DNA from: an uncultured bacterium
GTDB lineage: Bacteria; Omnitrophota; Omnitrophia; Omnitrophales; Abzuiibacteriaceae
Assembly (NCBI GenBank): GCA_964387845.1
Contig: CAYLXA010000001.1
Coordinates: 320,001-384,000 of the forward strand
DNA length: 64,000 bases
Direction: 5' to 3'
In this document: piece by piece, positions 17,816-39,531 of the stretch
Numbering within the stretch: position 1 is the first letter of the stretch
How the letters are laid out: every line of letters begins with the position of its first letter
The notes under the pieces: model-generated
What the model was told of the DNA's origin: nothing
Database searches by the model: none
The model's input: the letters and a program-made list of their open reading frames with translations, nothing else
Translations under genes and position numbers: made by a program

Positions 17816-17820
17816 TTTTC

Positions 17821-20202: not shown

Positions 20203-22938
20203 TTAACCTGTGCTTTTCATGCCAAAAGCAATGCCATTTAGGGCTAATAAAAGCACGTCTTTTATCTGATTCTGGCGGACAGCACTTTGGTTTGTGCTCT
20301 TTTTTGATTCTTCTAAAAACCGGACTTGAAGAAAATTCAAGGGATCAACGTACGGATTCCGCAAACGAATTGACTCTTTGAGAACCGGATGAAACCCCAA
20401 TAAGTCGTCTTGCCCGGTAATTTCAAGAATTTGATCACAGCTCCGCGCATACTCTTCTTTGATCCGGCCGAAAATCTCAGACCGCACGGCCTCGGAATCC
20501 ACCAAAGCAGAATACCGTTCGGCAATATACATATCCGCTTTTGCGAGAGATACGCGCGCATTGTCAATCAACATATGAAAAAAGGGCCATTTTTGGTACA
20601 TTTCGCGAAGTTCGGCCAAACCTTTTTTGCCTGACTGCTTGATCTCCGCTTCAAGTGCATAGCCGATCCCATACCAGGCCGGTAAAATAAACCTCGACTG
20701 AACCCAGCTGAATACCCACGGAATCGCGCGCAGATCTTGAAATTCCCGCGAACGCTTGCGCGATGCCGGCCGTGAGCCGATCTGCGCAATCCCAAAAAGC
20801 TGAATAGGTGTTGCGGAATAAAAGAATTCTTTAAAACCGGGCGAATCAAAAACCAAATCGCGATAAAATCTGAGCGATGTTTGGCATAGTTCTTCCATCT
20901 TTTTCTCCCATTCGGCAATTTTACGGCTTCTTGCCCATTCATGCTTGCCGACTAAATTGGTCCAAATGACGGCAGTCGCCAGCTGCTCCAAATTTCTTTG
21001 CGCAATCATCAGGTTGGCATACTTCTGCGAAACGACTTCGCCCTGCTCCGTAATCCTGATCTTTCCGCCCACCGCCGCATACGGCTGCGCCAAAATGGCT
21101 TTATGCGACTGTCCGCCTCCGCGGTCGATGGTGCCGCCTTTGCCGTGGAAAAACCGGACGGCGACATTAAATTTCTCGGCCATTTCGACCATCCGCTTCT
21201 GTGCAAGGTACAACTTCCAATTCGCCGCAAAATATCCGCCGTCTTTGTTGCTATCCGAATAGCCGAACATGATTTCCTGCAAATTGCCTTGGCTTTGCAC
21301 ATAGGAACGGTAAAGCGGAAGTGAAAAAAGTTTTTGCATAATCAAATGAGCTTCTGCTAGCGATTCGATTTTTTCAAAAAGCGGCACAATCGCCAGACAG
21401 CTTTCAACGACTTTTTTGCCTTTAACTTTGATTAAGCCCGCACGAACCGCCAAATACATAAACCCAAGAATATCTTCGGGCTTTTCAGCCATGCTTAATA
21501 AATAATTCTTCACATAAGAGCGGCCCATTTTTTCCTGAATTTCTTTGATGAGCTCAAGCTGCCGGATGATATCTTTGGATTCGGCGGATAGCCGGCGCGC
21601 TTTTTTAAACTGCGCGTTTTTCTTCGTGATTGCGCCAATCAATTGCCCGGCGGTTGGTTCAAATCCGAAAAGCTCCTTGACCGCATGCATGATTTTCCGG
21701 CTGTCGTCCCGGAAATCCAAAGCGGCCAAATGAAAACCGAATACGCGCACCTGGCAAATTAAATTTTCTAAATCACCCGCCACCGCAAACCGGCCTTTGT
21801 TCTTCTGCAGACTTTCTTGAATAATCAAAAGATCCGCCAAGAATTCATCCGGCGATTGATACTGAACGGATTTTTGCTGATACGTGTTTGAAAGTTTTCG
21901 GTGAATAAAAGAAAGTTTTTTTCGATAGAGTTCGCTCGACTCATATTTGTCGAGTTCGGAAGCCAACTTGGGCATCAAGCGGCGGTCGTTGGCAAGCGAA
22001 GCCAAAAAGGAACGCCCGGCGCCGATCATTTGGTCTGATTGGCTGAATTTCAGCATCAGCGCTTCGCAAGCGTTCAGGTAGAGCGTAAAAATAAGCTCTC
22101 GGTGGCGCCTTGCGGTTTCTTCGGTCACCTGGCAAGTCACATTGGGATTACCGTCGCGGTCGGCACCGACCCAGGAGCCAAAACGCACCAGCGGCAAATC
22201 GCTGATTTTTCCCGTTGATTCATAAAATTCATCATGACTTTTTTGAACGATTCGATGAAAAGCCGGAATCAGGGGGAAAATGGTTTTCTCAAAGAAAAAG
22301 AGAGTTTGGTCCACTTCATCCAAAACCGAAACTTTTTTCGTGCGGGTTGGTTTTGTCTGCCATAAAATTTCGAGCAATTCCTTGATCTTTAATGTATGAG
22401 TTTCCTTTTCGAAATTGGTAGCGTCCGGGTGATTGATTTGAGACAAGCTCGACGCGATTTCTAGAATATGGCTCAGAATGGTCCGCCGTTTGACTTCGGT
22501 CGGGTGCGCCGTTAAAACCAATTCGATATCCAAGCGATTGACAAGCCGGCTGACTTTTCGCTCGGAAATTTTTCGCTTAGACAAATCATGAAATAGTTTC
22601 CGGACCGACATATGCTGCAGCTGATTGTGCTTATCATATGCGCGTAGGCGGCGGATTCTTTCTGCTTCTTCGGCGATATTCGCGAGCTGAAAATAAATGG
22701 TGAATGCGCGCGCGATTTTGTACGCTTCCGGCACACTGAGTGATTGAATCAGCCGCCTTTTTTTGGCAATGAACGCCGGCGCATGGCTCTTCCGGATTTG
22801 CTTCGCAAAATGCCGGATTTTCTCGATCTTATTTAATAACGCAACCCCCTCCTGATCCCGGATCACATCGCCCAGAATTTTTCCGAGAAACCGGACATCC
22901 TGCCGCAATAGACTGTTTGACATGTTTTTATTTCTCAT
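20203..22938 (-). CDS. ppc: Phosphoenolpyruvate carboxylase.
   Basis: 911 aa, with LVLTAHPTEVKRRT and the C-terminal …FHGKGGTIDRGGG / GYSDSNKDGG blocks. Confidence 0.9.
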   Translation of the reverse strand: MRNKNMSNSLLRQDVRFLGKILGDVIRDQEGVALLNKIEKIRHFAKQIRKSHAPAFIAKKRRLIQSLSVPEAYKIARAFTIYFQLANIAEEAERIRRLRAYDKHNQLQHMSVRKLFHDLSKRKISERKVSRLVNRLDIELVLTAHPTEVKRRTILSHILEIASSLSQINHPDATNFEKETHTLKIKELLEILWQTKPTRTKKVSVLDEVDQTLFFFEKTIFPLIPAFHRIVQKSHDEFYESTGKISDLPLVRFGSWVGADRDGNPNVTCQVTEETARRHRELIFTLYLNACEALMLKFSQSDQMIGAGRSFLASLANDRRLMPKLASELDKYESSELYRKKLSFIHRKLSNTYQQKSVQYQSPDEFLADLLIIQESLQKNKGRFAVAGDLENLICQVRVFGFHLAALDFRDDSRKIMHAVKELFGFEPTAGQLIGAITKKNAQFKKARRLSAESKDIIRQLELIKEIQEKMGRSYVKNYLLSMAEKPEDILGFMYLAVRAGLIKVKGKKVVESCLAIVPLFEKIESLAEAHLIMQKLFSLPLYRSYVQSQGNLQEIMFGYSDSNKDGGYFAANWKLYLAQKRMVEMAEKFNVAVRFFHGKGGTIDRGGGQSHKAILAQPYAAVGGKIRITEQGEVVSQKYANLMIAQRNLEQLATAVIWTNLVGKHEWARSRKIAEWEKKMEELCQTSLRFYRDLVFDSPGFKEFFYSATPIQLFGIAQIGSRPASRKRSREFQDLRAIPWVFSWVQSRFILPAWYGIGYALEAEIKQSGKKGLAELREMYQKWPFFHMLIDNARVSLAKADMYIAERYSALVDSEAVRSEIFGRIKEEYARSCDQILEITGQDDLLGFHPVLKESIRLRNPYVDPLNFLQVRFLEESKKSTNQSAVRQNQIKDVLLLALNGIAFGMKSTG

Positions 22939-24035
22939 AGATTAATCTTTGAACTTGGCTTGATTGAACGAATAAACAAAATGAAGATCGTCACGACTGT
23001 AATGGGTATTATAAATGCAAACATGATAGAACTAAAGATCGGCAGAGCGTCGTGTTGTGTCGATTGAAAAAGCAAATAACAAACATACGACACATAATAG
23101 CCGAAGAAAAGAGTCCCTTCCCATCTGGCAATCAAATGACCCGTAAAAAAAATGGGAAAGCAAGCAACAGATACTGCCACCATGACAGGTATGTCAAAAT
23201 TAAGCGCTGCTTTCGAAACTTGAATCCCCTCCGGAGCGAGCACAGCGGTTAAACCCACGACGGCAAGGATGTTATAAATATTCGAACCAACGATATTTCC
23301 TACCGCGATGTCACGCTCACCCCGCAATGTAGCAACAATAGATGTAGCGATTTCAGGCAAGCCGGTGCCAATCGCGACAACCGTGAGGCCTATCACGAGC
23401 TCGCTGATTCCAAAAAGTCTGGCAATCTGAACCGAACCATCCACAAACCATTTCGCCCCTAAAATTACGGCCAACAAACTTACAGCAATCCAGAGCAGCT
23501 TGGAAAAAATTATGGCTTTCTTGCTGTGGCTTGATGCTCTTTTTCCAAATTCCTTTTCATATTCCTCTTTGACTTGCCCAGCTTCTTTCTTGCTCATTTT
23601 TACGACAAACCAGGTATACAAAAAGATACCAGAAATCAGCAAAATACCGTCGAAACGGCCGATCGTTCCGTCCCATGCGGCAGCAAACAAAACACAAGAC
23701 ACCAGAATCATAACGGGAACATCCCAGCGCACAATCTGCTGAGCTACAAATAACGGAGCAATCATGGCGCAAGTCCCTAGAATTAGCAGCACATTCGATA
23801 TATTGCTTCCCACTACATTGCCGAGCGAAATATCAGATTGGCCGGAAAACCCGGTTTGAAGGCTCACAATGAGTTCGGGTGTGCTAGTTCCGTAAGCAAC
23901 CACCGTTAAACCAACCAACAAAGGCGAGATTCCCAATCGAACGGCAAGTTGCGATGAATGACGAACCAAAAGCTCAGCCCCTACAATGAGCAATCCAAGT
24001 CCGCCGCTTAAATAAAACCATGTTACGGCATTCAT
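22935..24035 (-). CDS. Sodium/calcium exchanger (CaCA family, YrbG-like).
   Basis: Two alpha-repeat motifs (GTSTPELIVSL… and GTGLPEIATSI) and about 10 TM helices. Confidence 0.7.
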   Translation of the reverse strand: MNAVTWFYLSGGLGLLIVGAELLVRHSSQLAVRLGISPLLVGLTVVAYGTSTPELIVSLQTGFSGQSDISLGNVVGSNISNVLLILGTCAMIAPLFVAQQIVRWDVPVMILVSCVLFAAAWDGTIGRFDGILLISGIFLYTWFVVKMSKKEAGQVKEEYEKEFGKRASSHSKKAIIFSKLLWIAVSLLAVILGAKWFVDGSVQIARLFGISELVIGLTVVAIGTGLPEIATSIVATLRGERDIAVGNIVGSNIYNILAVVGLTAVLAPEGIQVSKAALNFDIPVMVAVSVACFPIFFTGHLIARWEGTLFFGYYVSYVCYLLFQSTQHDALPIFSSIMFAFIIPITVVTIFILFIRSIKPSSKINL

Positions 24036-24038
24036 TAT

Positions 24039-25157
24039 TTATTTGCTCAATTTCGCGGCGGGAGGAGAAGAAGAAAGCCAGATAACAGCCGCAATGAAGA
24101 ACCCGGTCAAGAGCAAATTCAAGGCAAGGCTCATGCCGGCCAGTGCAATGGCAGAGCCGCTAATCCCGTAGCTTAAAGCAACCAATAAAACACCTGCACC
24201 GACTTCGCCGCGAGGGAACATCGCAACGCTTACCGCGATTCGCTCGCGGAGAGTTGCTTCTTTGCCGTAACAAAATATCGGAAAACATTTGCCCACATTT
24301 GAGAGCACCGTTAAAAGCAGGACATGGATCACGGCCATTCCGATTGTGATTTCTCCAAGCTGAACTTTGGGAAGCGAACACCCGACCAAAAACATGAAAC
24401 CCGCTTTAATCGTCGGATCCACCATCGATTCTATTTGCTGAGGCAAAGTTTGGCGCGAAGCAGCTTGCGGCGCATGATGATGGCCTGCATGAGGATGATA
24501 CAAAACACAACCCAGCACGAATGCCGGCAAAAGCACCTCAAGATGAACTCCGGCTACAATTTCTACAAGAGAGCAAATGGCTACTATAATGATCGAATAC
24601 AACAAAATCCAAAGATTGCCCACCGGGAATTTCAAACTATGCAAATACCGGTAAGCCAGAACCAAAAGAATGACAATAACGACTATGATCGCACCGAGTT
24701 CGGGTTTTGCGCCGACAATCATGATTTTCAGCGGAATCATTAACAAAATAGTATCTAAGTCATCAAAAATTGCCAATATTCGGACTTTTCGGAAGATCCA
24801 AGTCGCACCAAGACCTGCAGCTAATAACATCGTAAACAAAACGCCGGCTGAAGTTGGTGCCGCAAAACGCCCCGCCAGTAGAGATTCTTGCCAATCCATT
24901 CCAAAAATATATACAAAATATGCCGCGCAAAAAATCCATGGAAAAGCAGCGGCCGTGGCGGCAACCAAATAATCTGTGGCGTAGGATTTGAGATTATTTT
25001 TATCAATTGTAAATTCAAGCCCTACTTGAATCATGATGTAGGCCAGACAGGTCATCGTTACCGCGTATAACAGCCCCTGAACTTTGGCCAAATCAAGGAA
25101 TTGAGATATGCCCATCCCTAATACAAGTAATAGGCTGAAAATAAAAACTTTCTTCAT
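24039..25157 (-). CDS. Cation:proton antiporter family membrane protein.
   Basis: About 12 TM helices and CPA-like blocks. Family assignment is tentative. Confidence 0.45.
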   Translation of the reverse strand: MKKVFIFSLLLVLGMGISQFLDLAKVQGLLYAVTMTCLAYIMIQVGLEFTIDKNNLKSYATDYLVAATAAAFPWIFCAAYFVYIFGMDWQESLLAGRFAAPTSAGVLFTMLLAAGLGATWIFRKVRILAIFDDLDTILLMIPLKIMIVGAKPELGAIIVVIVILLVLAYRYLHSLKFPVGNLWILLYSIIIVAICSLVEIVAGVHLEVLLPAFVLGCVLYHPHAGHHHAPQAASRQTLPQQIESMVDPTIKAGFMFLVGCSLPKVQLGEITIGMAVIHVLLLTVLSNVGKCFPIFCYGKEATLRERIAVSVAMFPRGEVGAGVLLVALSYGISGSAIALAGMSLALNLLLTGFFIAAVIWLSSSPPAAKLSK

Positions 25158-25253: not shown

Positions 25254-27038
25254 CTACGAACGAACTTTATGATAGCGGCTTCTTAATAGCAAGAGAAAAG
25301 CAACATCTGCCGCTACCACGGCGGAAACATACCCCACACCACCGCCGCCAAAACCATAACTATGAAGCCCGGCCGCTAAGACAAAATTCACGCCGTACCA
25401 GGCCATGATCACCGTCAAAAAGCAGACCGCGCACCAAAACGCGGTCGCGAATGAATCCAGCCAGCCGGCAGTTCGCCCATGCATAACCGCCAAATACGCA
25501 AGTAACGCAATCAAAGCCCAGGTTTCCTTCGGATCCCAGCCCCAAAACCGGCCCCATGAATAATTCGCCCAAACGCCGCCCAGGATTGTTCCGGCAGCGA
25601 GCAAAATAAGCCCAATTTGAAGCGAACGATAAAGAAAAGTAATAAGCTCATCTAACGTTTTATTATTTTTTTTCTTAAAAGCATAGTGAAACACAACCAC
25701 ATGCGCGACACCCCAATTGAGCAAAAACGCACCATAGCCGAGCGTAATCGTCAGCACATGAACTGTGAGCCAAAAATTGCTGCGCAAAACGGGAACCAAA
25801 GGCGAAATCGACTGGTCCAAAACCGCCGGTAAATTTTCGCTGATCAAGAGCGCCAGAATGGATACGGACGCTGCGATCATCGGAATCAAATAGGACCTGT
25901 AAAAAGCAAAAAGAATGAGCGAGAAAAGCACAACACTCCACGACACCCAAATGACTGACTCATACATGTTCGTCACGGGCGGACGCCCGGCGATTAAACA
26001 ACGCAGCACAAAACCCAACGTATGAACCGCAAAAGCCGCGGTAAAAAATGAGAAAGCGATTTTATTGGCGCGTTTTTTATTTCTCAGTGTCAGCCAGATC
26101 AGAAGGCTGCCTAAATAAATTGCCCATGCCGTATGAAACGGGCGAAATTTGAGATAGAAAAGCTCGTAATGAATCAACGTCCGGTCGATGATGATGTCGC
26201 GCGATTCCAGTAATTTTGTAAGCGCATTGGCGAAAAATGAAGCAGATACGCCGGCCATTTCGATTTTTTCATCCCGCAAGCGGCCGAGGAGAAATGAAAG
26301 TGAGTTACTCGCTTCCTTCACATTCGCCGCGGGATACATGGTTTCCAAAATGGAAATACCGTGATCGCTCGCAAGCCCCTCAAGCGGAACCCACCCCGCC
26401 TGTGGATCATCGGGATGCGGAATAAAGCCCGGCATTTCTCCGCGCCCGATAGCCTGAAACAGACGCGCTCTGCTTCCGAGTTCAATCATTGCCTTTTCGT
26501 ATTCGTTTAGTTTTTCTTTTCTGTCCTGCTTAGCCCTTACTTCACCTGTTCTTGCCGTAAAATTCAAATCGGCGAGAACAAGAGAAGGTGCGATTCTATT
26601 GTTTTCCAGATCCGCGGAGAAATCCTTTCGTAACTCGGGATTTGAAACAGGTAAAATAGCCTTCGCGCTCCAAATATCGGGGGCCGCAATCCATCGCCAC
26701 ACCAGTTCGGTTGGCTCCATTTTTTGAAAATGTGTTTTGCCGGTCATATAGAGGACGATTTCTTTCGCGAAACTCTCAAACGGCTTGACGCGGCCGCCCT
26801 GCTGAACCGGAATTCCACCCAAAACTTCGTGCGCATTACCTTCGGATTGATTGGCAAAGGATTGGGGCGAGAAAAACATCGCCAAGAGAATGACTAAAGA
26901 AAGACTGACAATAAATTTACAATACACCCCCTCACCCTTTCCCTCTCCCTGAGGGAGAGGGGAATTGTTTAACTCACTCCCTCTCCCGCTTGCGGGAGAG
27001 GGCTGGGGTGAGGGTTGATTATTTAGAAATTGTCTCAT
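25254..27038 (-). CDS. ccsA: Cytochrome c biogenesis protein CcsA (System II haem lyase subunit) with an N-terminal extension of about 280 aa.
   Basis: The C-terminal WWD domain (WGRFWGWDPKETWALIALLAY) and conserved His are present. The first ~37 codons of the track ORF are encoded by the family-1 repeat, so the true start is probably at GTG ~26927 or ATG ~26879. Either gives a signal-peptide-like N-terminus (YCKFIVSLSLVILLAMFFSPQSFA). Confidence 0.7.
   Translation of the reverse strand: MRQFLNNQPSPQPSPASGRGSELNNSPLPQGEGKGEGVYCKFIVSLSLVILLAMFFSPQSFANQSEGNAHEVLGGIPVQQGGRVKPFESFAKEIVLYMTGKTHFQKMEPTELVWRWIAAPDIWSAKAILPVSNPELRKDFSADLENNRIAPSLVLADLNFTARTGEVRAKQDRKEKLNEYEKAMIELGSRARLFQAIGRGEMPGFIPHPDDPQAGWVPLEGLASDHGISILETMYPAANVKEASNSLSFLLGRLRDEKIEMAGVSASFFANALTKLLESRDIIIDRTLIHYELFYLKFRPFHTAWAIYLGSLLIWLTLRNKKRANKIAFSFFTAAFAVHTLGFVLRCLIAGRPPVTNMYESVIWVSWSVVLFSLILFAFYRSYLIPMIAASVSILALLISENLPAVLDQSISPLVPVLRSNFWLTVHVLTITLGYGAFLLNWGVAHVVVFHYAFKKKNNKTLDELITFLYRSLQIGLILLAAGTILGGVWANYSWGRFWGWDPKETWALIALLAYLAVMHGRTAGWLDSFATAFWCAVCFLTVIMAWYGVNFVLAAGLHSYGFGGGGVGYVSAVVAADVAFLLLLRSRYHKVRS
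26927..27013. repeat. Family-1 nested palindromic repeat (two inner ccctctccc-loop-gggagaggg hairpins inside ccctcaccc…gggtgaggg).
   Basis: ccccctcaccctttccctctccctgagggagaggggaattgtttaactcactccctctcccgcttgcgggagagggctggggtgaggg. Confidence 0.8.
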
Positions 27039-28798
27039 TAGATTTTCCTCATTTTGGGGTCACTGGTCTTAAGCGTCGAATATTGTTTTAAATAGAATAA
27101 CAAAATAATTCCGACTATCATCACAATCGAACCCGCATATTTAACCGGGATACCGGGGTCGCGCGCAACTGTAAAGACGGAAATATCCGGCTCGCCGGGC
27201 GTCACTTGATACGCAGATTGATACACTTTGAAACTACGATGAACGAGCGGTTCATTCATCTGAATCAATTGATCGCGGCTGATTCCCTTCGCTACGTCTT
27301 TCAAAGTGACCTGGCTTTTGAAACTGGCGGGCCGGTTGGTGCCGGGATCCGTATCCATTAAAAAATCATTCAATTGAATCGTGAAGCCCAGCGGTTGCGT
27401 CTCAAGCCCATAAACAAAGTGCCAATCATGGCCGCCTAACTGAGTCCGTTCAACCTGGCCCTGCCGAAGCCATAAATTTTGAGATTCATTTCCGTCCGAT
27501 AGTTCGATTTGAATGACGCGAGTTGCGCCTGTGCGCTCTGAAGCGAGAGGAATCGGAGAAAATGAACGTTCTACTTCGGCATGATGATAAAAAGCATCAA
27601 CACTGAATTTAAAATCCATCCATCCGGTTTCAATTTGTTTGCCGATTTCGACAATGCCGTCCGTAAGCAAATCGCCCTTTTTAACTTGATAGCGCGGTAA
27701 ACCGTCCGGATTATAAATGAACCGAAGTTCGTTCTTTGAAGCCGCTTGATCCGCTTGGCCGGCCATTTTCATCGCAATCCGCATTCCGGAAGCGCTTGGC
27801 GCCATGCCATGCACAGTCGGAAAATCGGGAAAATTCGCGAAAATGGTATGCTGTTCGTTCAATCCATCGCCTTCCAAGATCAATTCCACCGCGGGGTTCC
27901 GCCACTCCTTGGAACGGTCAATCAATTTGTTTTGATCTACAATCGCATCACGCAAAATACGGTTGAGCTTAGCGCGGATTTTAGTGCCTTGAAGCGTAAA
28001 TGATTTTGGTTTGTCGGATTCCTTGATCGGAACCTGAATGATTTTACCCGATTTGAGCATAAATTCTAAATGCGCAAATTCATCTCCCGATTTTTTCTTC
28101 GGTTTCTCGATGTCAATCGGTTGGCGCGCAAAATGAATGACGGCGGCACCCATGGCTAGCTGATTTTTTTCGGGATTATCCAAGAAAAGCCAATCGTTGG
28201 TTTGCGCCATCGATCCGGATAGTGAAAATTGAATGGCGGGAGACCCTTTGGCGGATTCTTTGACAGATTCTCCCAAAACCGCTTTCGGGAAATCCTGCAA
28301 AACATGGATCTGAACGGAGCTTTTCGGCTTCAATTCCAATTTCCGGCGCCCGGACCACGGAAACACGCTTGGTTTATAATGCATGACAAAATGTTCTTTC
28401 AAATCGGGAGAGAAAATTTCAAGTATCGGATTCGCCAAAGTCATACGGCTTTCGGAATCGCCTTCCTGAATCGACACCTGCCCTTCAATCCCGAAACGCT
28501 GCGTGATCAAAGAACCAATGAGAATCAAGATGATTCCGAGATGGGTCAAAAGAAAACCGATGTGCTGCTTGCGCCACGGCCAACGGCTGATTGCGGATGC
28601 GGCTAAATTAATCGCCAGTAAAACCAAAACAATCGAAAACCAAGGAGTATAATAAATCAAGCGCTGGGCGGCTTCCGCACCGTGATACGACTCGATGAAG
28701 GTGCCGGCAGCCACAATAATCGCGACAGTTACAATAAGCAGAACCGCGCACCAAAGCGAAGCAAAAAATTTGAATAGGTCGGACAATAGATGATTCAT
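27038..28798 (-). CDS. resB: Cytochrome c biogenesis protein ResB/CcsB (System II).
   Basis: N-terminal TM pair, large periplasmic domain and C-terminal TM. The stop abuts the ccsA track start. Confidence 0.7.
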   Translation of the reverse strand: MNHLLSDLFKFFASLWCAVLLIVTVAIIVAAGTFIESYHGAEAAQRLIYYTPWFSIVLVLLAINLAASAISRWPWRKQHIGFLLTHLGIILILIGSLITQRFGIEGQVSIQEGDSESRMTLANPILEIFSPDLKEHFVMHYKPSVFPWSGRRKLELKPKSSVQIHVLQDFPKAVLGESVKESAKGSPAIQFSLSGSMAQTNDWLFLDNPEKNQLAMGAAVIHFARQPIDIEKPKKKSGDEFAHLEFMLKSGKIIQVPIKESDKPKSFTLQGTKIRAKLNRILRDAIVDQNKLIDRSKEWRNPAVELILEGDGLNEQHTIFANFPDFPTVHGMAPSASGMRIAMKMAGQADQAASKNELRFIYNPDGLPRYQVKKGDLLTDGIVEIGKQIETGWMDFKFSVDAFYHHAEVERSFSPIPLASERTGATRVIQIELSDGNESQNLWLRQGQVERTQLGGHDWHFVYGLETQPLGFTIQLNDFLMDTDPGTNRPASFKSQVTLKDVAKGISRDQLIQMNEPLVHRSFKVYQSAYQVTPGEPDISVFTVARDPGIPVKYAGSIVMIVGIILLFYLKQYSTLKTSDPKMRKI

Positions 28799-28898
28799 AA
28801 CAGTTTAAGATAAGGGGTAATTATACATGATTGGCATAGCACACGTCATTAGAAACCGAAATTAGTTTAAGCGGGAATTAATTAGACTGATTGAAGAA

Positions 28899-30986
28899 TC
28901 AGCCCCAAGCCAAGCTGATTTCGCAGGAAATTAAATGCGCAATGTAATCGCCAAATTCGGCGTTGGAATTGGCAAGATAGTAATAAAGTCCGTATTTTGG
29001 CTCAACAGTTACTTTTTCATTCACATTCCATTTCAAGCCCGCTTCCAAATCCAGTTTCCGATAATCAGATCCGATCGGCAAGCCTCTGGCAGTAAAATCA
29101 TTAAAATTATCAGCACGGGCATATTGCACCGATTGAATAAACGAAACATTTTCTTTCGGCATGTAGCTCGTACTCAATGTCCACGTATCCACATTCGCGT
29201 TAAAACCCGGCAGGTTACCGCTTAATGCGCCGGCGGCCGGAGTATTGGTGTTTGACATAAGCTTTGAATAGGAGCCCAGAATCATTACATTTTCAACGGG
29301 TTGCGATGTAAAATCAAAAATAAAATTATTTGAGGTTGTTTCCGTATCAACGCCTGCTAAATTTTCAATGTTCGTCCTGTAATTTGTATCGCGCCCGATA
29401 AACCGAAAAGACGGCTGAAGATATTTGGTTAATGTCAATGCCAACCTCATCATGAATTCATTAATATAGGTGTGCTGGCTGTCAAAAAATGCAGATTTTG
29501 AAACTCCTGATGAAACAGTTTCGTAAATATCATCGTAATCCGTCATTTTAAGAGTCCTTCGAAAATGCGAAGTAATCCGCACAAATGAAAACGGCGCTGC
29601 GTGCCCGCCTAAAGTCATCACGCCACGCTGGATGTTTGTAATCGTTTCGCGAATAAAAACTTCACTTGCACTCGCCCCCGACTGTCCGCCAACGCTATCC
29701 CGATTTTCAGACATCGGTAACCGGTCTTGTTCTAATTCCAATTCTGTATAAATAGCCGTCCGCGGAATCGCCGTAAATCTGGCCGTAATCCCTTGTCCCC
29801 ACCTGAAACCGCTCATACGCGTATCGCTGACGTCAAATCGGTTAATGCGATTATCGGGCGGATCTGTGGTCTCAACGTTATAAGTAGACTCTCCGCGGCG
29901 ATTTAAAAATTCTGACTTAACCTTTGCGCCGATATTGAACCATTTTGTGACCAGGGCCATCATATTAGCAACCCAGGTGTTGGAATGAAAATGGTTGGTT
30001 GCGATATTGCCAAAACGGTTTTCAGCATTTGCAAATGAACGCGGATTACCATTTTCGTCAAACTCTCGGATATCTTCCCATTCTTTGTTATGGATTTGTG
30101 CATATCGATACCCAGCCGAAGTGTACACTTTGTCCTTTAAAAACCACTTCGCGATTCCAAATATTGAGCTGAAAGTGTGTGCTTCCGGCTTTTGCTGCTG
30201 CTTTCTAATTAATTTATTACCAGCCGTAGCATCAGAGTCAGCGCCAAAATATTTCTCGACGCGTGTGTTATCGGATTTCACAATTTCAAATTTTTGCTCG
30301 CTTTTAAGTTCATAACCTTTAACGGTATGGTCGACTTTCAAGCCAAACGTATCCGCCACTTCGCTCACATCCTGATAGGAAGGCGCTATTTTCCGCGTCA
30401 CACCGCTCTGAACCACGTCTCCCCATGTTAATCTGGATTTTGCACCATTTTTAAATTCGCGCTCATACCCAATCATTACTTTTGGAAAATCCGGTATATC
30501 CAGCTCCGCTTCAACGCCGAAATGGCCGATGTCCAGTTCTAAATCTTTAACCGCGTCGCCAACCCGGAGTGTGTAGTCGCCCCGCGTTAGATTAAACGGA
30601 TGATAAACACCGCCCGTCCGGTCATAATATTTCCGGAACTCTTGGTAATCAAATTTGATTTGTCCCACTTCTTTTTTCTTGATGATGACAACGCCTTCGT
30701 AATCATTGTCCGCGGGGATTGCCTTGCCTTCCATTTTTACCGTAATATCATTCGGAAGCCTGTAAAAAGAATAAAATTCCTCAACGCCTGCGGCGTAATT
30801 GTTGCTCTTCCAATGATGCGCTCTGAATTTATCGGCTTCCCCGTCCACAAAAATATAACGGACCGGAAGAGGTGTGATATCAAGATGATTTTCTGAATTA
30901 TTTTCCGAAGCTGCGTATAGAGATTGAGTGACGGCCAAAGAGACATACGCTAAAACGAATATTAACTTCCAATATGAGCGTCTCAT
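28899..30986 (-). CDS. Outer-membrane beta-barrel protein (~695 aa) with a signal peptide; candidate porin component of a porin–cytochrome complex.
   Basis: MRRSYWKLIFVLAYVSLAVTQSLYA signal peptide, Y/G/T-rich amphipathic beta-strand pattern throughout. The start was chosen at the Met 58 codons into the track ORF. It has a consensus AGGAGG SD and begins 11 nt after the upstream cytochrome stop. Confidence 0.55.
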   Translation of the reverse strand: MRRSYWKLIFVLAYVSLAVTQSLYAASENNSENHLDITPLPVRYIFVDGEADKFRAHHWKSNNYAAGVEEFYSFYRLPNDITVKMEGKAIPADNDYEGVVIIKKKEVGQIKFDYQEFRKYYDRTGGVYHPFNLTRGDYTLRVGDAVKDLELDIGHFGVEAELDIPDFPKVMIGYEREFKNGAKSRLTWGDVVQSGVTRKIAPSYQDVSEVADTFGLKVDHTVKGYELKSEQKFEIVKSDNTRVEKYFGADSDATAGNKLIRKQQQKPEAHTFSSIFGIAKWFLKDKVYTSAGYRYAQIHNKEWEDIREFDENGNPRSFANAENRFGNIATNHFHSNTWVANMMALVTKWFNIGAKVKSEFLNRRGESTYNVETTDPPDNRINRFDVSDTRMSGFRWGQGITARFTAIPRTAIYTELELEQDRLPMSENRDSVGGQSGASASEVFIRETITNIQRGVMTLGGHAAPFSFVRITSHFRRTLKMTDYDDIYETVSSGVSKSAFFDSQHTYINEFMMRLALTLTKYLQPSFRFIGRDTNYRTNIENLAGVDTETTSNNFIFDFTSQPVENVMILGSYSKLMSNTNTPAAGALSGNLPGFNANVDTWTLSTSYMPKENVSFIQSVQYARADNFNDFTARGLPIGSDYRKLDLEAGLKWNVNEKVTVEPKYGLYYYLANSNAEFGDYIAHLISCEISLAWG

Positions 30987-30996
30987 GACGGCCTCC

Positions 30997-31779
30997 TTAA
31001 TATCGAAGATGATCGTCAAAATTGGAACCATGAACCGCCGTGTGGCACTTCGCGCTGAAGCAAGTGCCTTGCGCAAGGCGCGTAGCATGATTAGAACTTC
31101 CGATGAACGGAAAATTATCTTGTGTATGACAACGTAAACATAAATTACTGTCGCGGGCAATCAGCATTTTGTCAGTAATCGAGCCATGAACTTGATGACA
31201 TGTCGTGCAGCCTTCGCGCAGCGCTTCATGCTCCCACACAAACGGGCCGCGTTGTTCTTTATGACATTTAAAGCATGCTTCGTTGACATCTTCCATGGTT
31301 GTGGATGACCATGGCCTGACTTCCGGTCCGTGCGGACTATGGCAGTCCGAACAACTCATCTTTCCTTCGAGCACGGGATGGTGGTGCGGAAGATTAAATT
31401 CTACTTTTTTATCGGTATGACACGCAAAACAGACGGACGGATCTTTTCTGGGATTAATGATTTTCTTATCTTGGCTGGATTCTTTTAACTTATCATCCAT
31501 ATCGACATGTAGACTTCCGGGGCCATGACAAAGCTCGCAGCCTTGTACCGCCATATCTTTTCCGGGAATGCTGATACGGGAATGGGTCGAAAGTTCAAAC
31601 TCTTTGACTTCTTTTTCATGGCAAGCGGCGCAAGTATCCATACCGACATACTCCGCGCCTTCTATGTTATGAACTTCGAGAACTTTTTGGAGGGCTTCTT
31701 CGTCGTATTTGCAAGAAGTGACACTGAGAACGAGGGATAATACCGCAAAACTAACAAAAATGCTGGCTTTTTGATTCAT
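30997..31779 (-). CDS. Octaheme c-type cytochrome lipoprotein (seven CXXCH plus one CX4CH).
   Basis: Lipobox LSVTSC. Motifs: CAACH, CELCH, CFACH, CSDCH, CFKCH, CTTCH, CLRCH, CFSAKCH. Confidence 0.8.
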   Translation of the reverse strand: MNQKASIFVSFAVLSLVLSVTSCKYDEEALQKVLEVHNIEGAEYVGMDTCAACHEKEVKEFELSTHSRISIPGKDMAVQGCELCHGPGSLHVDMDDKLKESSQDKKIINPRKDPSVCFACHTDKKVEFNLPHHHPVLEGKMSCSDCHSPHGPEVRPWSSTTMEDVNEACFKCHKEQRGPFVWEHEALREGCTTCHQVHGSITDKMLIARDSNLCLRCHTQDNFPFIGSSNHATRLAQGTCFSAKCHTAVHGSNFDDHLRY

Positions 31780-31912
31780 GCTAGCGGTTTATGATTTGTG
31801 TTTGCGTACGAATTATATTGTTTTATTAAGAAATGACAATCGCTTTTATGGCAGTGAAATTATCGACATTTCCTGAAAAACTTTATGTGACATCTGTCAC
31901 TTAAATTGACGT

Positions 31913-33403
31913 TTATGCAGGGCCGCCGGTATGGCAATCCATGCACGATATTTCTTTCCATGATTCTTGATCGCCGTCGGGATGCTTAAATTCCAGCCCA
32001 TCTACCGAACTTTCCATAGCGCCAAATGGACCTTGAGCAATAATCCCGTGGCAAATTTTGCAATCATTTGAAATGATTTTACCCTGCGGGCTTTCATGCT
32101 TGCCGTCATGGCAACGGAAACAACCTGGCGCCATCATGTGCCCGATATTGTCCGGATACGCTTTCCAAGACACATTCATACCCGGGAAAAAGTTGGATTG
32201 ATAAATTTCAACAATGGCTTGAATAGAACGGTCTAACTTGTTTTTCTGATTCTGGAAAACTTCCGGATAATTATCCTCGTAAAATTTTTCCAACCGCGAC
32301 CGAATCTGAGCAGCCGCATCATCATGAGACTCGTATTTGCCGACCAAAACCTTGACGGCTTCGCGTTTCATATAAGGGAGCTCGGCGGCAATATCGCCTT
32401 TTCCCATTGCTTTATTGACAGACCTGGAAGGCGCTTCATATTGATGGCTGGGCCGATTGTGGCAATCGATGCAGTCCATTTTTCGGATTTCGCCTTGCGG
32501 CGGTTTGCTAGCAGAAAATTTTGACTCACTGTCTACAAAATATTCTTCGCGGCCATCCTCATAAACCACTTTGACCCATGGAATTATTTGACGTTTTTCG
32601 TCAGTTGAAACATAGTAAACTTTGTTCGCAGGGTTCACATGCCAATGGCTTCCATGCGCCTTTTCCCCGCCGCCCACATACATCAGCATGCGGGTGTTCC
32701 AAAGTGTGTTACTTTCGTCTGACATGAAATATTGATGATCCTTCTCAATGGCTCCAAAAAACTTCTCGGGCCAATGACAATGTTCGCATGTTTCTTGAGC
32801 GGGCCGTAAATTCTTGACCGGCGCCGGAATGGGTTTGGAATATTTCTTGAAAATAGATGAATAAATTTGATGGGCGCCGTTAATTTTAGACTTCAAATAA
32901 TAATCAGGCCCTGGGCCGACATGGCATTCAACGCAGGAAACGCGGGCATGCGGCGATTTGTGATACGCGGTAAATTCCGGATGCATGACTTGATGGCAGG
33001 TTTTTCCGCAAAATGTCACGGATTCCGAAAATTGATAAGCCTTGTAAGTTCCAAACATAGAAAAAATCAAGAAAACCGTGAAAAACCCAATGCCGATTAA
33101 CGCCCAGCGTTGATGGGCCGGATTATTAAAATCAATCTGCGGAAACTTGCGGACATAACCTCTTTTCCGGCGCGCCGAACGTTCCCGCCAAGCGCCAAAA
33201 AAAATTAAAAAAAGAGTGAGTATAAGGAAGGCCGGAAGCCCGACATAAGTGATGGATTGCGTGTAGGGATTAATTTCTTTTGAAAGGAATTCGAGGACAA
33301 TTAAAACTAAGATAGCAGAGAAAATGACAATGGAAAGAATTGCGCCGATAATGCTGAGCCAATTTTGAAAAAGGCTTTTGTTTGAATTTGGCAATTCAGA
33401 CAT
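31913..33403 (-). CDS. NapC/NirT-family inner-membrane multiheme cytochrome c (seven haems, ImcH-like quinol dehydrogenase candidate).
   Basis: Three N-terminal TM helices. Motifs: CGKTCH (CX3CH), CVECH, CEHCH, CIDCH, CFRCH, CKICH, CMDCH. Confidence 0.7.
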   Translation of the reverse strand: MSELPNSNKSLFQNWLSIIGAILSIVIFSAILVLIVLEFLSKEINPYTQSITYVGLPAFLILTLFLIFFGAWRERSARRKRGYVRKFPQIDFNNPAHQRWALIGIGFFTVFLIFSMFGTYKAYQFSESVTFCGKTCHQVMHPEFTAYHKSPHARVSCVECHVGPGPDYYLKSKINGAHQIYSSIFKKYSKPIPAPVKNLRPAQETCEHCHWPEKFFGAIEKDHQYFMSDESNTLWNTRMLMYVGGGEKAHGSHWHVNPANKVYYVSTDEKRQIIPWVKVVYEDGREEYFVDSESKFSASKPPQGEIRKMDCIDCHNRPSHQYEAPSRSVNKAMGKGDIAAELPYMKREAVKVLVGKYESHDDAAAQIRSRLEKFYEDNYPEVFQNQKNKLDRSIQAIVEIYQSNFFPGMNVSWKAYPDNIGHMMAPGCFRCHDGKHESPQGKIISNDCKICHGIIAQGPFGAMESSVDGLEFKHPDGDQESWKEISCMDCHTGGPA

Positions 33404-33440
33404 TTTTTACTTTTTTCCCGTATCGATACAGTGCCGACTG

Positions 33441-34004
33441 TTACGATTTCGGTTTTGGATGTGCAATCTTTGCTTGGCGCTCTTTGTAATCAAACGGCTT
33501 GTAGGTCGGGCTTTCCTGATTATGGCACTTCACGCACGTACTTTCATCCGGTAACAACAAACCATTTTCAATCGATGCCTGGCGGTCTTCCATAACACTT
33601 TTCTTCATATAATCCTTACCGGGCCCGTGACAGCTTTCGCAGGAAACACCTTCCTCTACCGGAATCGCATCAGAAACTTTTGTTTCGCCAAACCAATAAG
33701 CCGTTGAGTGGCATTTTAAACACTTGCCGCTGGTTTGAGGATCGCTAATACCTAATTTGGCAGCCGCTTCTTTCGCGGCGGGTGTGCCGAGTGTTTCAAA
33801 TGCTTTAGCATGCATGGATTCCTGCCAAATCCGGAATTGCTCACCTTCTTCCGGTTTTTTGTGGCACAGGGAACATTTTTTGGCTCCGATAAATTCATGT
33901 GCAGGCGCTGCTGCAAAAACAGGTTGATGGCTGAGAAAAAATACGGAAATAACAGCTAGGAAATATTTGAGAAAAATACCGGAATGAAACGAGTGCTTTG
34001 ACAT
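33441..34004 (-). CDS. Periplasmic tetraheme cytochrome c.
   Basis: Signal peptide (FLAVISVFFLSHQPVFAAA), then CSLCH, CLKCH, CESCH, CVKCH. The start was placed at the internal Met (MSKHSF) by codon arithmetic; the track ORF extends to 34076. Confidence 0.7.
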   Translation of the reverse strand: MSKHSFHSGIFLKYFLAVISVFFLSHQPVFAAAPAHEFIGAKKCSLCHKKPEEGEQFRIWQESMHAKAFETLGTPAAKEAAAKLGISDPQTSGKCLKCHSTAYWFGETKVSDAIPVEEGVSCESCHGPGKDYMKKSVMEDRQASIENGLLLPDESTCVKCHNQESPTYKPFDYKERQAKIAHPKPKS

Positions 34005-34277
34005 ATTTTGGTGGCTCCTGTTTAGCTTCCTACTTTGCACTCTTATATACGAAATGCCCGCTCGTGCATGTGACATTCATCACTGCCCCAGCGTAACTTT
34101 AAAACAAAAATCACACTCTAATTAGAACGCTGGGACTGGACTCATTTCCTCTAGACTCACGCTTTTCTCAATGAAAATGAGTCCTGCACGAATTTTATCA
34201 ATAAATGAAGATAGAAAGCAATTGCCAATAATTCTCACAAATTATCGTAATTTGCCGTCAATTTATGAAGAAAATAA

Positions 34278-34331: not shown

Positions 34332-34658
34332 ATGCAAAGCGTGTTACTATTAATTGCTCTCGGTTTTGGCTTTAAAATATTCGCGGAAGCCAGTGAAAAG
34401 CAGAAAAAACCCATTAAACAGCTCGGCCGGTTGGTCGGTATTATCATCATGATTGTCAGCCTTTGCGGCGTTTTGTGCAGCATTTTCGCCTGCATGAAAG
34501 GCAGCCCCTGTGGTCCGGCGACGGCCGGCTATTGCCCTACTCATGGATCCGAAAAAGGAATGATGGGTTTCGGCCATTACGGGATGAAAAAGGATAAGGC
34601 GATGTGCCCCTTGTTTGGTTCAGCCGATAAGAATGCTGTTTCCGACGAGGCAAAATAA
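34332..34658 (+). CDS. Small two-TM, cysteine-rich membrane protein (hypothetical).
   Basis: 108 aa. Two hydrophobic helices, then CMKGSPCGPATAGYCPTHGSEK…MCPLFG. Strong SD. Confidence 0.45.
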   Translation: MQSVLLLIALGFGFKIFAEASEKQKKPIKQLGRLVGIIIMIVSLCGVLCSIFACMKGSPCGPATAGYCPTHGSEKGMMGFGHYGMKKDKAMCPLFGSADKNAVSDEAK

Positions 34659-37269: not shown

Positions 37270-39531
37270 TTACTTCCCCTTCATTAAATTCAGCGCGCTG
37301 CCGGCCTTAAACCAGGCGACCTGCTCCTGTGTAAAAGAATGCACGAGCGGCGCGTTTTCGGTTTCGCCGTTTGCGTGCATAATCACAAGCTCCAGCAAAC
37401 TTTTGGGCGCCAAAATATCAACGCCTTCGATGCTGATGCGGTCATCCGCTTTGATTTTGTCATAATCAGACGGGTTTTTGAACTTAAGCGGCAGGAGGCC
37501 CTGCTTTTTTAAATTCGTTTCATGAATCCGCGCAAAACTTTTTGCAATCACGGCTGCGCAGCCCAAATACCGCGGGCTCATCGCGGCATGTTCGCGGCTT
37601 GAGCCTTCACCATAATTTTCATCGCCGACCACAACCCAACGGAGGTTATTCTTTTTATAATCGCGCGCCACTTCCGCCGGTGTCATTTTAGTACCCTTTT
37701 GAAGCTGATTCAGGGCTGTGCCTTGCGCACCGGAAAAATCATTGTTGGCTCCGAGAAACATGTTGTCTGAAATTTTATCCAGATGGCCTCGATATTTGAG
37801 CCATGGCCCGGCTGGCGAAATATGGTCCGTCGTACATTTCCCCTTCGCTTTGAGCAGCACCGGAAGATTTTCGAAATCGCTTTCCTTCCAGGGCTTAAAC
37901 GGCTCCAATTTCTGGAGGCGCTCGCTTTGCGCATCGATTGAAACTTGCACAAAAATTCTCTCTTTTTCGGAGAGCGGCGCCAGAAATCCCGCTTCGCCTG
38001 CGGCAAATCCGCTGGAAGGAAGTTCCGGTGCTTCGGGCGGCGTCAAAAGTATTTCCTTTCCGCCGGTTTTGATTTTGTCTTTAAGCGGATTGAAATCGAG
38101 GCGGCCTGCCAGTGCATAGGCCGTCACGATTTCGGGCGAGGCGATAAAAGCCAGAGTTTCGGGATTACTATCGTTTCTCGCAGGAAAATTACGGTTAAAG
38201 GATGTAATGATCGAATTTTTCTCGCCTTTTTTGATATCGTCACGTTTCCACTGGCCAATGCAGGGGCCGCAGGCATTTGCAAGAACCGTTCCGCCGATTT
38301 CTTCTAAGGCCTGAAGCTGGCCGTCTCGCTTAATGGTGTTTTGAATTTGGTCGGATCCCGGCGTGATTAAAAAGTAGCACTGGGCTTTAATGCCGGCTTC
38401 ACGGGCCTGTTCGGCCACCTGCGCAGCGCGGCCGATATCTTCATAAGAAGAATTGGTACAACTGCCGATGAGCGCAGCTTTGATCATCGCCGGATAACCT
38501 TTTTCTTTCACGTCCTTCGCCATCTCGGAAACCGGGCGTGCCAAATCCGGCGTATGTGGGCCCACAACATGCGGCTCTAGCGCGGACAAATCAATTTCAA
38601 TCACTTCGTCATAATAAAGTTCCGGGTTTTTATCGATTTCAGGATCTGCAGTCAGAAATTTTTTGTGCTGCTCGGCGATATCCGCAATTTCTTTGCGTTT
38701 TGTGCTGCGCAAATAAGTTACCATTCGCGAATCAAACGGAAAAACAGAAGTCGTTGCGCCCAGCTCTGCGCCCATATTGGCGATTGTGCCTTTTCCGGTA
38801 CAGCTGATAGACTGCGCGCCGGATCCAAAGTATTCGACGATCTTATCCGTTCCGCCTTTCGTTGTTAAAATCCCACAAAGTTTCAAAATCACGTCCTTGG
38901 CAGAAGCCCAGCCGTTCAATTTTCCCTTTAAATGAACGCCTATCAACTTCGGGCATTTGACTTCCCAGCTGAGGCCCGACATCACATCGGCTGCATCCGC
39001 GCCGCCGACACCGATCGCCAGCATGCCAAGGCCGCCTGCATTCGGCGTGTGGGAATCCGTCCCGATCATCAACCCGCCGGGAAACGCATAGTTTTCGAGC
39101 ACAACTTGATGAATAATCCCCGCGCCGGGTTTCCAAAATCCGATCCCGTAACGCTGCGCTGCGGTTTTCAGGAATTCGTAGACTTCCTTATTGGTTTGGA
39201 CTGCATTGAGCGTGTCTTCTGCGGCACCGATCCGGGCTTGGATCAAATGATCACAATGAATGGTTGTAGGAACCGCGACGGAATTGCGCTGAGCCAGCAT
39301 GAATTGCAGGATTGCCATTTGCGCTGTCGCATCCTGCATTGCCACGCGGTCCGGCCTGAGTGAAAGATAGCTTTCGCCGCGCACGAAATCCTGGGATTTG
39401 AGATCTGTCACGTGCGTTGCCAGGATTTTTTCGGTAAGCGTGAGCGGCCGGGCTAATTTTTTTCTGAGAAAATCAACTTTACCTTCGGCAGTTGCCAAAA
39501 GGCTCTTAATCATAAAAAGCGCATCGCTCAT
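37270..39531 (-). CDS. acn: Aconitate hydratase (mitochondrial-type AcnA, ~750 aa).
   Basis: Fe–S cluster cysteines (…GSCTNSS…, ANACGPCIGQW) and a C-terminal swivel domain with the SREHAA motif. Confidence 0.9.
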   Translation of the reverse strand: MSDALFMIKSLLATAEGKVDFLRKKLARPLTLTEKILATHVTDLKSQDFVRGESYLSLRPDRVAMQDATAQMAILQFMLAQRNSVAVPTTIHCDHLIQARIGAAEDTLNAVQTNKEVYEFLKTAAQRYGIGFWKPGAGIIHQVVLENYAFPGGLMIGTDSHTPNAGGLGMLAIGVGGADAADVMSGLSWEVKCPKLIGVHLKGKLNGWASAKDVILKLCGILTTKGGTDKIVEYFGSGAQSISCTGKGTIANMGAELGATTSVFPFDSRMVTYLRSTKRKEIADIAEQHKKFLTADPEIDKNPELYYDEVIEIDLSALEPHVVGPHTPDLARPVSEMAKDVKEKGYPAMIKAALIGSCTNSSYEDIGRAAQVAEQAREAGIKAQCYFLITPGSDQIQNTIKRDGQLQALEEIGGTVLANACGPCIGQWKRDDIKKGEKNSIITSFNRNFPARNDSNPETLAFIASPEIVTAYALAGRLDFNPLKDKIKTGGKEILLTPPEAPELPSSGFAAGEAGFLAPLSEKERIFVQVSIDAQSERLQKLEPFKPWKESDFENLPVLLKAKGKCTTDHISPAGPWLKYRGHLDKISDNMFLGANNDFSGAQGTALNQLQKGTKMTPAEVARDYKKNNLRWVVVGDENYGEGSSREHAAMSPRYLGCAAVIAKSFARIHETNLKKQGLLPLKFKNPSDYDKIKADDRISIEGVDILAPKSLLELVIMHANGETENAPLVHSFTQEQVAWFKAGSALNLMKGK

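Follow-up and report, generated by a model that had tools for sequence, protein, structure and literature searches.

The window analysed here, 64,000 nucleotides (nt) of an uncultured Omnitrophota bacterium (assembly GCA_964387845.1, contig CAYLXA010000001.1, positions 320,001-384,000, forward strand), carries between positions 25254 and 34076 six open reading frames (ORFs), all on the minus strand, which probably encode an MtrAB/MtoAB-type electron conduit across the outer membrane, clustered with the genes of its inner-membrane feeder and of haem attachment (Table 1). ORF listing and translation recovered all six co-directional genes where a first-pass annotation of this DNA had placed them. 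The haem-binding motif CXXCH is confined to the three cytochrome genes, with zero occurrences in all other stop-to-stop frames of at least 60 codons across the 64 kb, so that the 19 haem sites gathered in three neighbouring genes do not reflect chance.

Table 1. Genes and sequence elements of the cluster, listed in transcription order
Feature	Position	Strand	Remarks
Tetrahaem cytochrome c, c554 family	33441..34076	-	ORF of 211 amino acids (aa); four CXXCH
ImcH-type inner-membrane multihaem cytochrome	31913..33403	-	496 aa; three N-terminal hydrophobic segments, CX3CH and six CXXCH
Promoter-like site TTGTCA-16-TATAAT	31812..31839	-	consensus match only, 11/12; in the 133-nt gap before the octahaem gene
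MtrA/DmsE-family octahaem cytochrome	30997..31779	-	260 aa; seven CXXCH and a terminal CX4CH (CFSAKCH)
Predicted MtrB-like outer-membrane β-barrel	28899..30986	-	695 aa; signal peptide, no haem motif, about 26 strands, no plug
Promoter-like site ATGACG-18-TATAAT	28820..28849	-	consensus match only, 10/12; in the 100-nt gap before resB
ResB (CcsB), System II maturation	27038..28798	-	586 aa; PF05140; transmembrane segments at both ends
CcsA with N-terminal extension of about 270 aa	25254..27038	-	594 aa; PF01578, TIGR03144
Two tandem palindromes of the repetitive extragenic palindromic (REP)-like type, CCCTCTCCC-N-GGGAGAGGG	26935..27010		inside the annotated 5' end of ccsA

Read in the direction of transcription, the intergenic gaps measure 37, 133, 10, 100 and -1 nt. 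The barrel ATG (30986) lies 10 nt past the TAA of the octahaem gene, with the Shine-Dalgarno (SD) sequence AAGGAGG placed across that stop, in agreement with the coupling of the two genes proposed in the first-pass annotation. The same annotation described a tightly spaced operon; the genes are co-directional, but their reading as a single six-gene unit is called into question by promoter-like matches in the 133- and 100-nt gaps, which are the best two sigma-70-like matches of the minus strand, such matches not being enriched across the region (21 observed versus 16.6 expected). Since these gaps hold promoter-like sites, and no SD sequence is visible before the octahaem gene or resB, the cluster may comprise three transcription units: (i) tetrahaem-ImcH, (ii) octahaem-barrel, and (iii) resB-ccsA. 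Rfam models find no match within the cluster.

The evidence for a conduit begins with the octahaem cytochrome, which alignment identifies as an MtrA relative without two haems of the N-terminal module. Compared with the sequences of the Protein Data Bank (PDB), it matches MtrA (6r2q_A) with an E-value of 2.9e-41 in two co-linear stretches (residues 23-254), a similarity that runs over the full length of the protein, and it scores 175.7 bits with TIGR03508 (DmsE/MtrA), below the curated cut-off of 192.2. Its haems 1-2 align to haems 1-2 of MtrA, and its haems 3-8 to haems 5-10, the correspondence from which the absence of the two haems follows. In place of the ten CXXCH motifs of the family, the protein has eight sites (seven CXXCH and one CX4CH), a count found in 85 of 120 homologues, 34 of the 120 having one extra N-terminal site. 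The CX4CH occurs in 119 of the 120 best homologues, within the motif C[FW]SA.CH...HGSN, where MtrA has a CXXCH. In an alignment of 38 loci, none of the eight haem motifs varies, and exactly eight histidines besides those of the motifs are likewise invariant, which points to eight bis-histidine haems with a predicted role in electron transfer. The description of this protein as an octahaem lipoprotein thus stands for the haems, whereas the lipoprotein character is particular to its lineage: the window protein has a lipobox (VTSC, Cys23), the Cys recurs at that position in about 11% of 38 homologues (including those of the related loci L001, L010 and L037), the lipobox is restricted to the sub-lineage of the window, and most homologues display an ordinary signal peptide, as MtrA does.

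The protein of 695 aa encoded directly downstream matches no Pfam or NCBIfam family, and the MtrB/PioB model PF11854 gives no match even at E <= 1, so that the profile searches suggested in the first-pass annotation lend no support to an MtrB/PioB affiliation. Of the 69 homologues found, all those with a phylum-level taxon name belong to Candidatus Omnitrophica/Omnitrophota. The outer-membrane β-barrel and its strand count are supported by a confident AlphaFold2 model, built with 43 homologues (predicted local distance difference test, pLDDT, 89.4), which comprises 26 long strands and one short hairpin, with strands starting at residue 34, right after the signal peptide, and the plug domain absent. 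In structural comparisons MtrB (6r2q_B) is the best match, and thus the closest solved fold, Foldseek also placing it first (E 4.4e-11); the MtrB alignment extends over 552 residues, versus about 430 for receptors, a structural margin over other barrels that is modest, as is usual for barrels. Autotransporter, TonB-dependent receptor and LptD readings of the protein were considered and rejected on the grounds of the missing passenger or plug, the longer MtrB alignment and the invariant cytochrome partner. Because the sequence routes failed, homology to MtrB rests on fold and context; on the predicted structure, the barrel would function as MtrB does, to which it is probably distantly related, although it fails the sequence test for the Pfam family.

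Related loci place the octahaem and barrel genes in a constant association. Altogether 47 loci were gathered and scored with the window proteins, a scan of the species representatives of the Genome Taxonomy Database (GTDB) returning 38 loci. About half of the records of these 38 are named Omnitrophota/Omnitrophica; the others are mostly uncultured metagenome-assembled genomes (MAGs) with generic or auto-assigned names ('uncultured bacterium', Planctomycetales/Planctomycetia), and one locus, at 25% identity, comes from a Syntrophales MAG. The best match among the species representatives is 51% identical, so the species of the window is absent from them. Upstream DNA of at least 900 nt is available in 39 loci, and in all 39 the barrel gene is immediately preceded by the octahaem gene, so that the gene order of the window is kept in every relative in which it could be scored. 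Pairwise identities of the two proteins are correlated across loci (Spearman 0.79, 528 pairs, with p-values inflated by shared ancestry), versus 0.22 for octahaem and ImcH and 0.03 for barrel and ImcH. By these comparisons, the octahaem cytochrome and the barrel evolve as one unit, and the inner-membrane module is exchangeable. The invariant adjacency and the co-variation provide indirect support for a barrel that would sheath the octahaem cytochrome.

An exhaustive profile search extends the barrel into a wider superfamily, with 914 cluster representatives of the representative library at E <= 1e-3, including 402 at E <= 1e-30. Among the 43 lowest-scoring full-length matches, 28 carry one or two N-terminal PSCyt1 (PF07635) monohaem domains fused to the barrel. 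Owing to these fusions in distant relatives, the superfamily is generally cytochrome-associated, which supports the conduit. The fusions (within P0268-P0328, alignment A2) are mostly about 800 aa long, and in the one fusion locus examined (L048, 6001-8487) the gene stands alone, with no multihaem gene adjacent; such proteins may be 'fused cytochrome-porins' comparable to Cyc2, with a much larger barrel of the MtrB-like kind. A natural fusion of the octahaem cytochrome to the barrel was also sought, and the search returned only low-complexity or PSCyt1 extensions.

These data bear on the simplest rival explanation, in which a common porin or receptor for solutes happens to be encoded beside cytochrome genes, and the cytochromes form a purely periplasmic chain for electron transfer or reductase activity. 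The lack of a Pfam or NCBIfam family for the barrel and the matches of six relatives to the generic OMP_b-brl model speak for it, yet we consider it very improbable, given that (i) no plug or TonB-box domain is present and strands begin immediately after the signal peptide, (ii) an empty barrel of 26 strands would form a very large open pore, (iii) the octahaem pairing is invariant and, in the window, reinforced by the 10-nt spacing and a strong SD sequence, (iv) the pair co-varies far more closely than either member does with ImcH, (v) distant barrel relatives are fused to a cytochrome domain, and (vi) MtrB aligns over a longer stretch than receptors do. An unrelated porin without cytochrome partner, a possibility that the first-pass annotation had raised against itself, is therefore not what the relatives display.

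The two remaining cytochromes would supply the components expected on the inner side of an electron conduit. The tetrahaem protein matches the c554 family (PF13435, 65.1 bits versus a cut-off of 20.8, E 1.2e-17) and, among PDB sequences, cytochrome c554 of N. europaea (1bvb, E 4.2e-12), so that model match, structure match and four CXXCH agree. The earlier description of a periplasmic tetrahaem cytochrome holds, but the start probably needs to be moved: the ATG at 34004, preceded by AGGAG 10 nt upstream and followed by the signal peptide in a protein of 187 aa, is on sequence grounds a better candidate than 34076. A c554-like tetrahaem gene is found directly upstream of the ImcH-like gene in eight related loci and, wherever present, it occupies that position.

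The ImcH-type protein displays hydrophobic segments at residues 10-45, 49-74 and 99-120, a CX3CH at residue 132 and CXXCH at residues 157, 206, 311, 428, 448 and 487. Only its N-terminal region is recognized by family models and structures, PF03264 (NapC/NirT) with E 6.7e-12 and NrfH (2j7a_C) with E 5e-4, the latter limited to the same NapC/NirT region. The published signature of ImcH comprises three transmembrane (TM) helices, an atypical CX3CH next to TM3, six CXXCH and a length of 495-519 aa, with motif positions such as 129/153/202/311/428/448/488 in one homologue (PMC6295460). The window protein fits each of these features, and its motif spacing is almost identical to that of the listed homologues, three of which are from Omnitrophica (comparison with the tables of PMC6295460). 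The first-pass assignment to a seven-haem, NapC/NirT-type, ImcH-like cytochrome is thus right at the level of architecture, and the protein is a putative quinol/quinone-interacting entry point.

The similarity of these two cytochromes to enzymes of the nitrogen cycle was also weighed. A nitrite or hydroxylamine reductase module, the second possibility that the first-pass annotation had raised against itself, was rejected for want of a catalytic subunit signature: NrfA and HAO give no above-threshold match in the Pfam and NCBIfam scans of the cluster proteins, no CXXCK was seen on reading the cluster translations, and the octahaem protein has its strong match to MtrA instead. Sub-threshold matches comprise PF02335 on the tetrahaem protein (23.0 bits versus 24.1) and NrfB/NrfH-like modules. 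The c554-family protein encoded immediately upstream of a NapC/NirT-related cytochrome resembles the arrangement of CycA (c554) and CycB (cM552) in ammonia oxidisers; unlike that system, the window lacks an HAO-like catalytic octahaem protein, and the partner is a seven-haem, three-TM ImcH type rather than the tetrahaem cM552.

Taken together, MtrA homology, barrel fold and invariant pairing support the porin-cytochrome logic (MtrAB/MtoAB/PioAB/Ext-type) proposed in the first-pass annotation, and we regard it as likely that the cluster encodes a conduit of this kind. In the proposed mechanism, the ImcH-type cytochrome, held in the inner membrane by its three-helix anchor, would exchange electrons with the quinone pool, and the soluble c554-like tetrahaem protein would ferry them across the periplasm. 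The eight-haem MtrA-family cytochrome, threaded through the plug-less barrel of about 26 strands, would cross the outer membrane, so that electrons could pass to (or from) a substrate unable to enter the cell. The location of the octahaem protein inside the barrel and the order of the electron carriers are inferred from these relationships. Since the cluster encodes no MtrC-like surface cytochrome, the exposed octahaem end would serve as the reactive site, an arrangement also proposed for MtoAB and PioAB. The ResB/CcsA pair (System II) would attach haem at the 19 sites of the three cytochromes.

Comparison with the known systems highlights both the common design and the differences. The window shares with MtrAB of Shewanella (6R2Q) the homologous cytochrome, the plug-less barrel partner of about 700 aa and about 26 strands, for which MtrB is the best structural match, and the adjacent genes in the order A then B; unlike MtrAB, the cytochrome has eight haems instead of ten, with a CX4CH as last site and, in its lineage, a lipobox, the barrel is missed by PF11854, MtrC is absent, and the inner-membrane partner is of the ImcH type rather than CymA. 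The Geobacter ImcH/CbcL and Pcc/Ext systems share with the window the ImcH architecture of about 500 aa, the CbcL-like protein found in relatives, and the succession of quinol oxidase, periplasmic cytochrome and porin-cytochrome complex. OmaB, the Geobacter Pcc component, has eight haems, as has the periplasm-side cytochrome of the window, whereas the prediction for OmbB is a barrel of about 20 strands. A Pcc (OmaB-OmbB-OmcB) assignment fails on the barrel of about 26 strands and 695 aa and on the window encoding no other cytochrome, an OmcB-like lipoprotein cytochrome included; homology and strand count both assign the outer-membrane pair to the Mtr type. The MtoAB and PioAB systems of Sideroxydans and Rhodopseudomonas likewise comprise an MtrA-like and MtrB-like pair without surface decahaem, the A gene preceding the B gene, and their inner-membrane partner is a multihaem cytochrome that interacts with quinones; a CbcL/MtoC-type version of this partner occurs in relatives of the window (PMC6295460). 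On the other hand, MtoA and PioA are decahaem proteins, MtoB and PioB are members of Pfam MtrB_PioB, and the window differs in its heterotrophic context (tricarboxylic acid, TCA, cycle and glyoxylate shunt) and its ImcH partner. In a survey requiring mtrC, MtrCAB was found in only three phyla, Omnitrophota not among them (Baker et al. 2022, PMC8805035).

The neighbours of the octahaem-barrel pair were counted in the 22 loci that extend 5 kb or more to either side. An ImcH-like gene is the most frequent (15 of 22), followed by a CbcL-like gene, encoding a multihaem protein fused to a dihaem cytochrome b domain (12 of 22), ResB/CcsA within 10 kb (12 of 22), hemA for glutamyl-tRNA reductase (10 of 22) and the c554-like tetrahaem gene (6 of 22). 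A second, mutually exclusive locus type (type B) comprises ten loci (L005, L008, L013, L016, L017, L027, L034, L038, L039 and L044), in which a gene for a small Aq_1264_TM (PF27139) membrane protein precedes the pair; these loci have no ImcH, Ccs or hemA linkage, and L005 and L008 carry a multicopper oxidase and a CarboxypepD_reg protein alongside. In many type-A loci (L009, L012, L015, L018, L023, L024, L025, L033, L035 and L043), a nine-haem cytochrome of about 410-650 aa is encoded within a few kb after the barrel gene, in about half of them directly, and in L009 genes for Rieske and cytochrome b proteins come next; the nine-haem protein may represent an extra periplasmic or surface partner which the lineage of the window lacks.

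The closest relative is the sister species of locus L001, with a barrel protein 93% identical, 80-84% nucleotide identity and the same flanks; the sharing of the flanks is based on gene calls, alignment at the DNA level being obtained in one flanking stretch only. A horizontal-transfer island was rejected as an explanation of the cluster, given its unremarkable base composition and the same housekeeping genes on its flanks in L001. Between its ImcH and octahaem genes, L001 carries (7108-9063) a 651-aa CbcL-like gene with 11 CXXCH and an Ni_hydr_CYTB domain. The window, in turn, has genes for a Na+/H+ exchanger, a Na+/Ca2+ exchanger and phosphoenolpyruvate (PEP) carboxylase (20203-25157), none of which occupies that place in L001. 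Upstream of the cluster, a divergent ORF of 108 aa (34332-34658, plus strand) encodes a protein that is hydrophobic at the N-terminus and at about residues 33-55, with a Cys-rich tail (CGVLCSIFAC..SPCGP..YCP..MCP) and no Pfam match; a 112-aa gene of L001 matches it in position and orientation.

The last two genes of the cluster are members of System II by both families and by motif, as the first-pass annotation had them. ResB matches PF05140 (91.6 bits, E 6.6e-26), and CcsA, encoded by the adjacent gene, matches PF01578 (112.6 bits, E 2.6e-32) and TIGR03144 (161.5 bits, below the equivalog cut-off of 187.6) and contains the WWD-type haem-handling motif WGWDPKE. The ccsA ATG (27038) overlaps the resB stop, with an alternative GTG at 26927. 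The first 37 or so codons of the annotated ORF are two REP-like palindromes, read in frame as an N-terminus 'PSPQPSPASGRGS...SPLPQGEGKGEG', and CcsA of L001 has unrelated N-terminal sequence in their place; judged from the sequence, these codons may not be coding. REP-like elements of the form CCCTCACCC..CCCTCTCCC-N3-5-GGGAGAGGG also occur at about 3274-3325, 8871-8922 and 50751-50815 of the window. Compared with System II elsewhere, CcsA displays an N-terminal extension of about 270 residues (about 50-330, after one TM segment) without Pfam or NCBIfam match, and the pair sits within a conduit cluster, a layout not known from the described mtr, mto, pio and ext clusters. In all related loci (L004, L006, L007, L009, L012 and others), CcsA measures 526-594 aa and the extension aligns; a database search with the extension alone returned a single hit.

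The first-pass annotation called this haem lyase private to the cluster. The linkage is real and recurrent, ResB being linked to conduit genes in 17 related loci, but a dedicated system is not demonstrated by it, and ResB/CcsA could equally well be the general, perhaps the only, maturation genes of the organism. A lyase dedicated to the CX4CH and CX3CH sites, like NrfI/CcsA1 of Wolinella, would be compatible with the conduit and draws on the near-universal CX4CH of the octahaem homologues next to CX3CH as hallmark of ImcH, on ResB/CcsA within 10 kb in over half of the well-flanked loci, and on a CcsA that always measures 526-594 aa, with its conserved extra N-terminal region. We nevertheless hold such specialization to be rather unlikely, since hemA, a gene of housekeeping haem synthesis, is linked about as often, suggesting a general haem/cytochrome island, and since the ten type-B loci have no nearby Ccs, yet eight of their ten octahaem ORFs keep the CX4CH. 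General maturation systems, moreover, handle CX3CH and CX4CH sites in other bacteria.

Several observations weigh against the conduit or against its similarity to MtrAB. The AlphaFold model of the stand-alone octahaem protein was poor (pLDDT 45) and was discarded, and eight haems make a shorter wire than the ten of MtrA. PF11854 is matched by only 1 of 43 close and 5 of 43 distant barrel relatives, and the match inspected (P0055, 30.3 bits) is out of register; searched against PDB sequences, the barrel family profile does not recover MtrB (6r2q_B), and both this profile and P0055 return only noise. The CbcL-like gene of L001 is cleanly absent in the window, which has a 133-nt spacer (31780-31912) instead. 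The MtrC-less, two-component layout is that of MtoAB and PioAB of Fe(II) oxidisers, and the pairing of a c554 protein with a NapC/NirT-type cytochrome resembles the quinone-reducing CycA/CycB of ammonia oxidisers.

These last two points concern the direction of electron flow, for which we slightly favour outward over inward transfer. Outward, electrons derived from acetate and the TCA cycle would be respired onto Fe(III), Mn(IV), humics or a partner. This preference is based on (i) ImcH, and CbcL in relatives, being quinol oxidases of the Geobacter type, and (ii) the oxidative carbon metabolism encoded around the cluster. The context genes comprise aconitase, isocitrate dehydrogenase, succinate dehydrogenase (SDH), succinyl-CoA synthetase, malate dehydrogenase, PEP carboxylase, isocitrate lyase (50818-52125) and malate synthase (49150-50751), the complement of a heterotroph that respires and can oxidise acetate. 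The window is dense in genes of the TCA cycle (10576-22938, 37270-39531 and 46048-52125). In a 2026 preprint covering 176 complete Omnitrophota genomes, the glyoxylate shunt was found in 0 of 176 and sdhA/B in 2 of 176; with SDH and both shunt enzymes encoded here, the lineage of the window is metabolically atypical for its phylum.

The opposite direction would be an MtoAB/PioAB-like uptake of electrons from extracellular Fe(II), a mineral, a cathode or a partner cell, routed from the octahaem protein through the c554-like shuttle to ImcH, which would then reduce quinone. It draws on the absence of an MtrC/OmcA-like surface cytochrome from cluster and window (CXXCH scan), which is the MtoAB/PioAB layout (PMC8805035), on the position of the c554-like gene beside that of a NapC/NirT-type cytochrome, and on paralogous octahaem-barrel loci in Omnitrophota linked to multicopper oxidases (L005 and L008). 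The c554-like pairing would, in this case, correspond to CycA and CycB feeding the quinone pool. We judge uptake to be somewhat unlikely. The only role in which ImcH homologues have been implicated to date is the oxidation of quinol by Fe(III) reducers (PMC6295460); the 64 kb around the cluster encode an oxidative metabolism (TCA cycle, glyoxylate shunt and SDH) and lack genes of carbon fixation; and CbcL-like quinol oxidases are added in relatives. These points are not decisive, because Mtr-type conduits are reversible, as discussed in PMC8805035.

For the uncultivated phylum Omnitrophota, gene catalogues are the only source of knowledge on energy metabolism. FeGenie 'metal-reducing cytochromes', i.e. 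matches to cytochromes of Desulfovibrio ferrophilus, were reported in 10 of 23 Omnitrophia species (Seymour et al. 2023, PMC10066038), a deep-mine study placed Omnitrophica among the taxa with iron-cycling genes, and three ImcH and three CbcL homologues were listed in Omnitrophica by Zhong & Shi 2018 (PMC6295460), who found no mtrAB or mtoAB genes adjacent to imcH. The module described here did not appear in the full-text literature on Omnitrophota/Omnitrophica searched with MtrB, porin-cytochrome or multihaem terms. Against this background, a concrete conserved module can be defined, comprising the octahaem-barrel pair in about 40 loci, with ImcH, CbcL-like, c554-like, ResB/CcsA and hemA genes as frequent neighbours, and the window provides a counter-example to the published statement that imcH does not lie beside mtrAB-like genes (PMC6295460). 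The principle of porin-cytochrome conduits is unchanged, and the Mtr-type conduit itself is not new; its distinguishing elements here are (i) the eight haems, (ii) the CX4CH end haem, (iii) the barrel invisible to MtrB models, (iv) the ImcH neighbour, and (v) the co-located maturation and haem-synthesis genes. Because the standard MtrB models miss the barrel, surveys of extracellular electron transfer that use PF11854 or mtrC adjacency would under-count this module.

A broader reading, unlikely as a whole, joins these elements: a lineage-specific wire of eight haems that ends in an invariant CX4CH site, inside a barrel whose divergence hides it from current MtrB models, a specialized lyase for the CX4CH and CX3CH sites, and PSCyt1-barrel fusions in related phyla. 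If true, cells that are mostly ultra-small and possibly host-attached would exchange electrons directly with a partner cell or a mineral through a wire that works without any surface cytochrome, and the PSCyt1-barrel proteins would represent a second, independent 'fused cytochrome-porin' design besides Cyc2.

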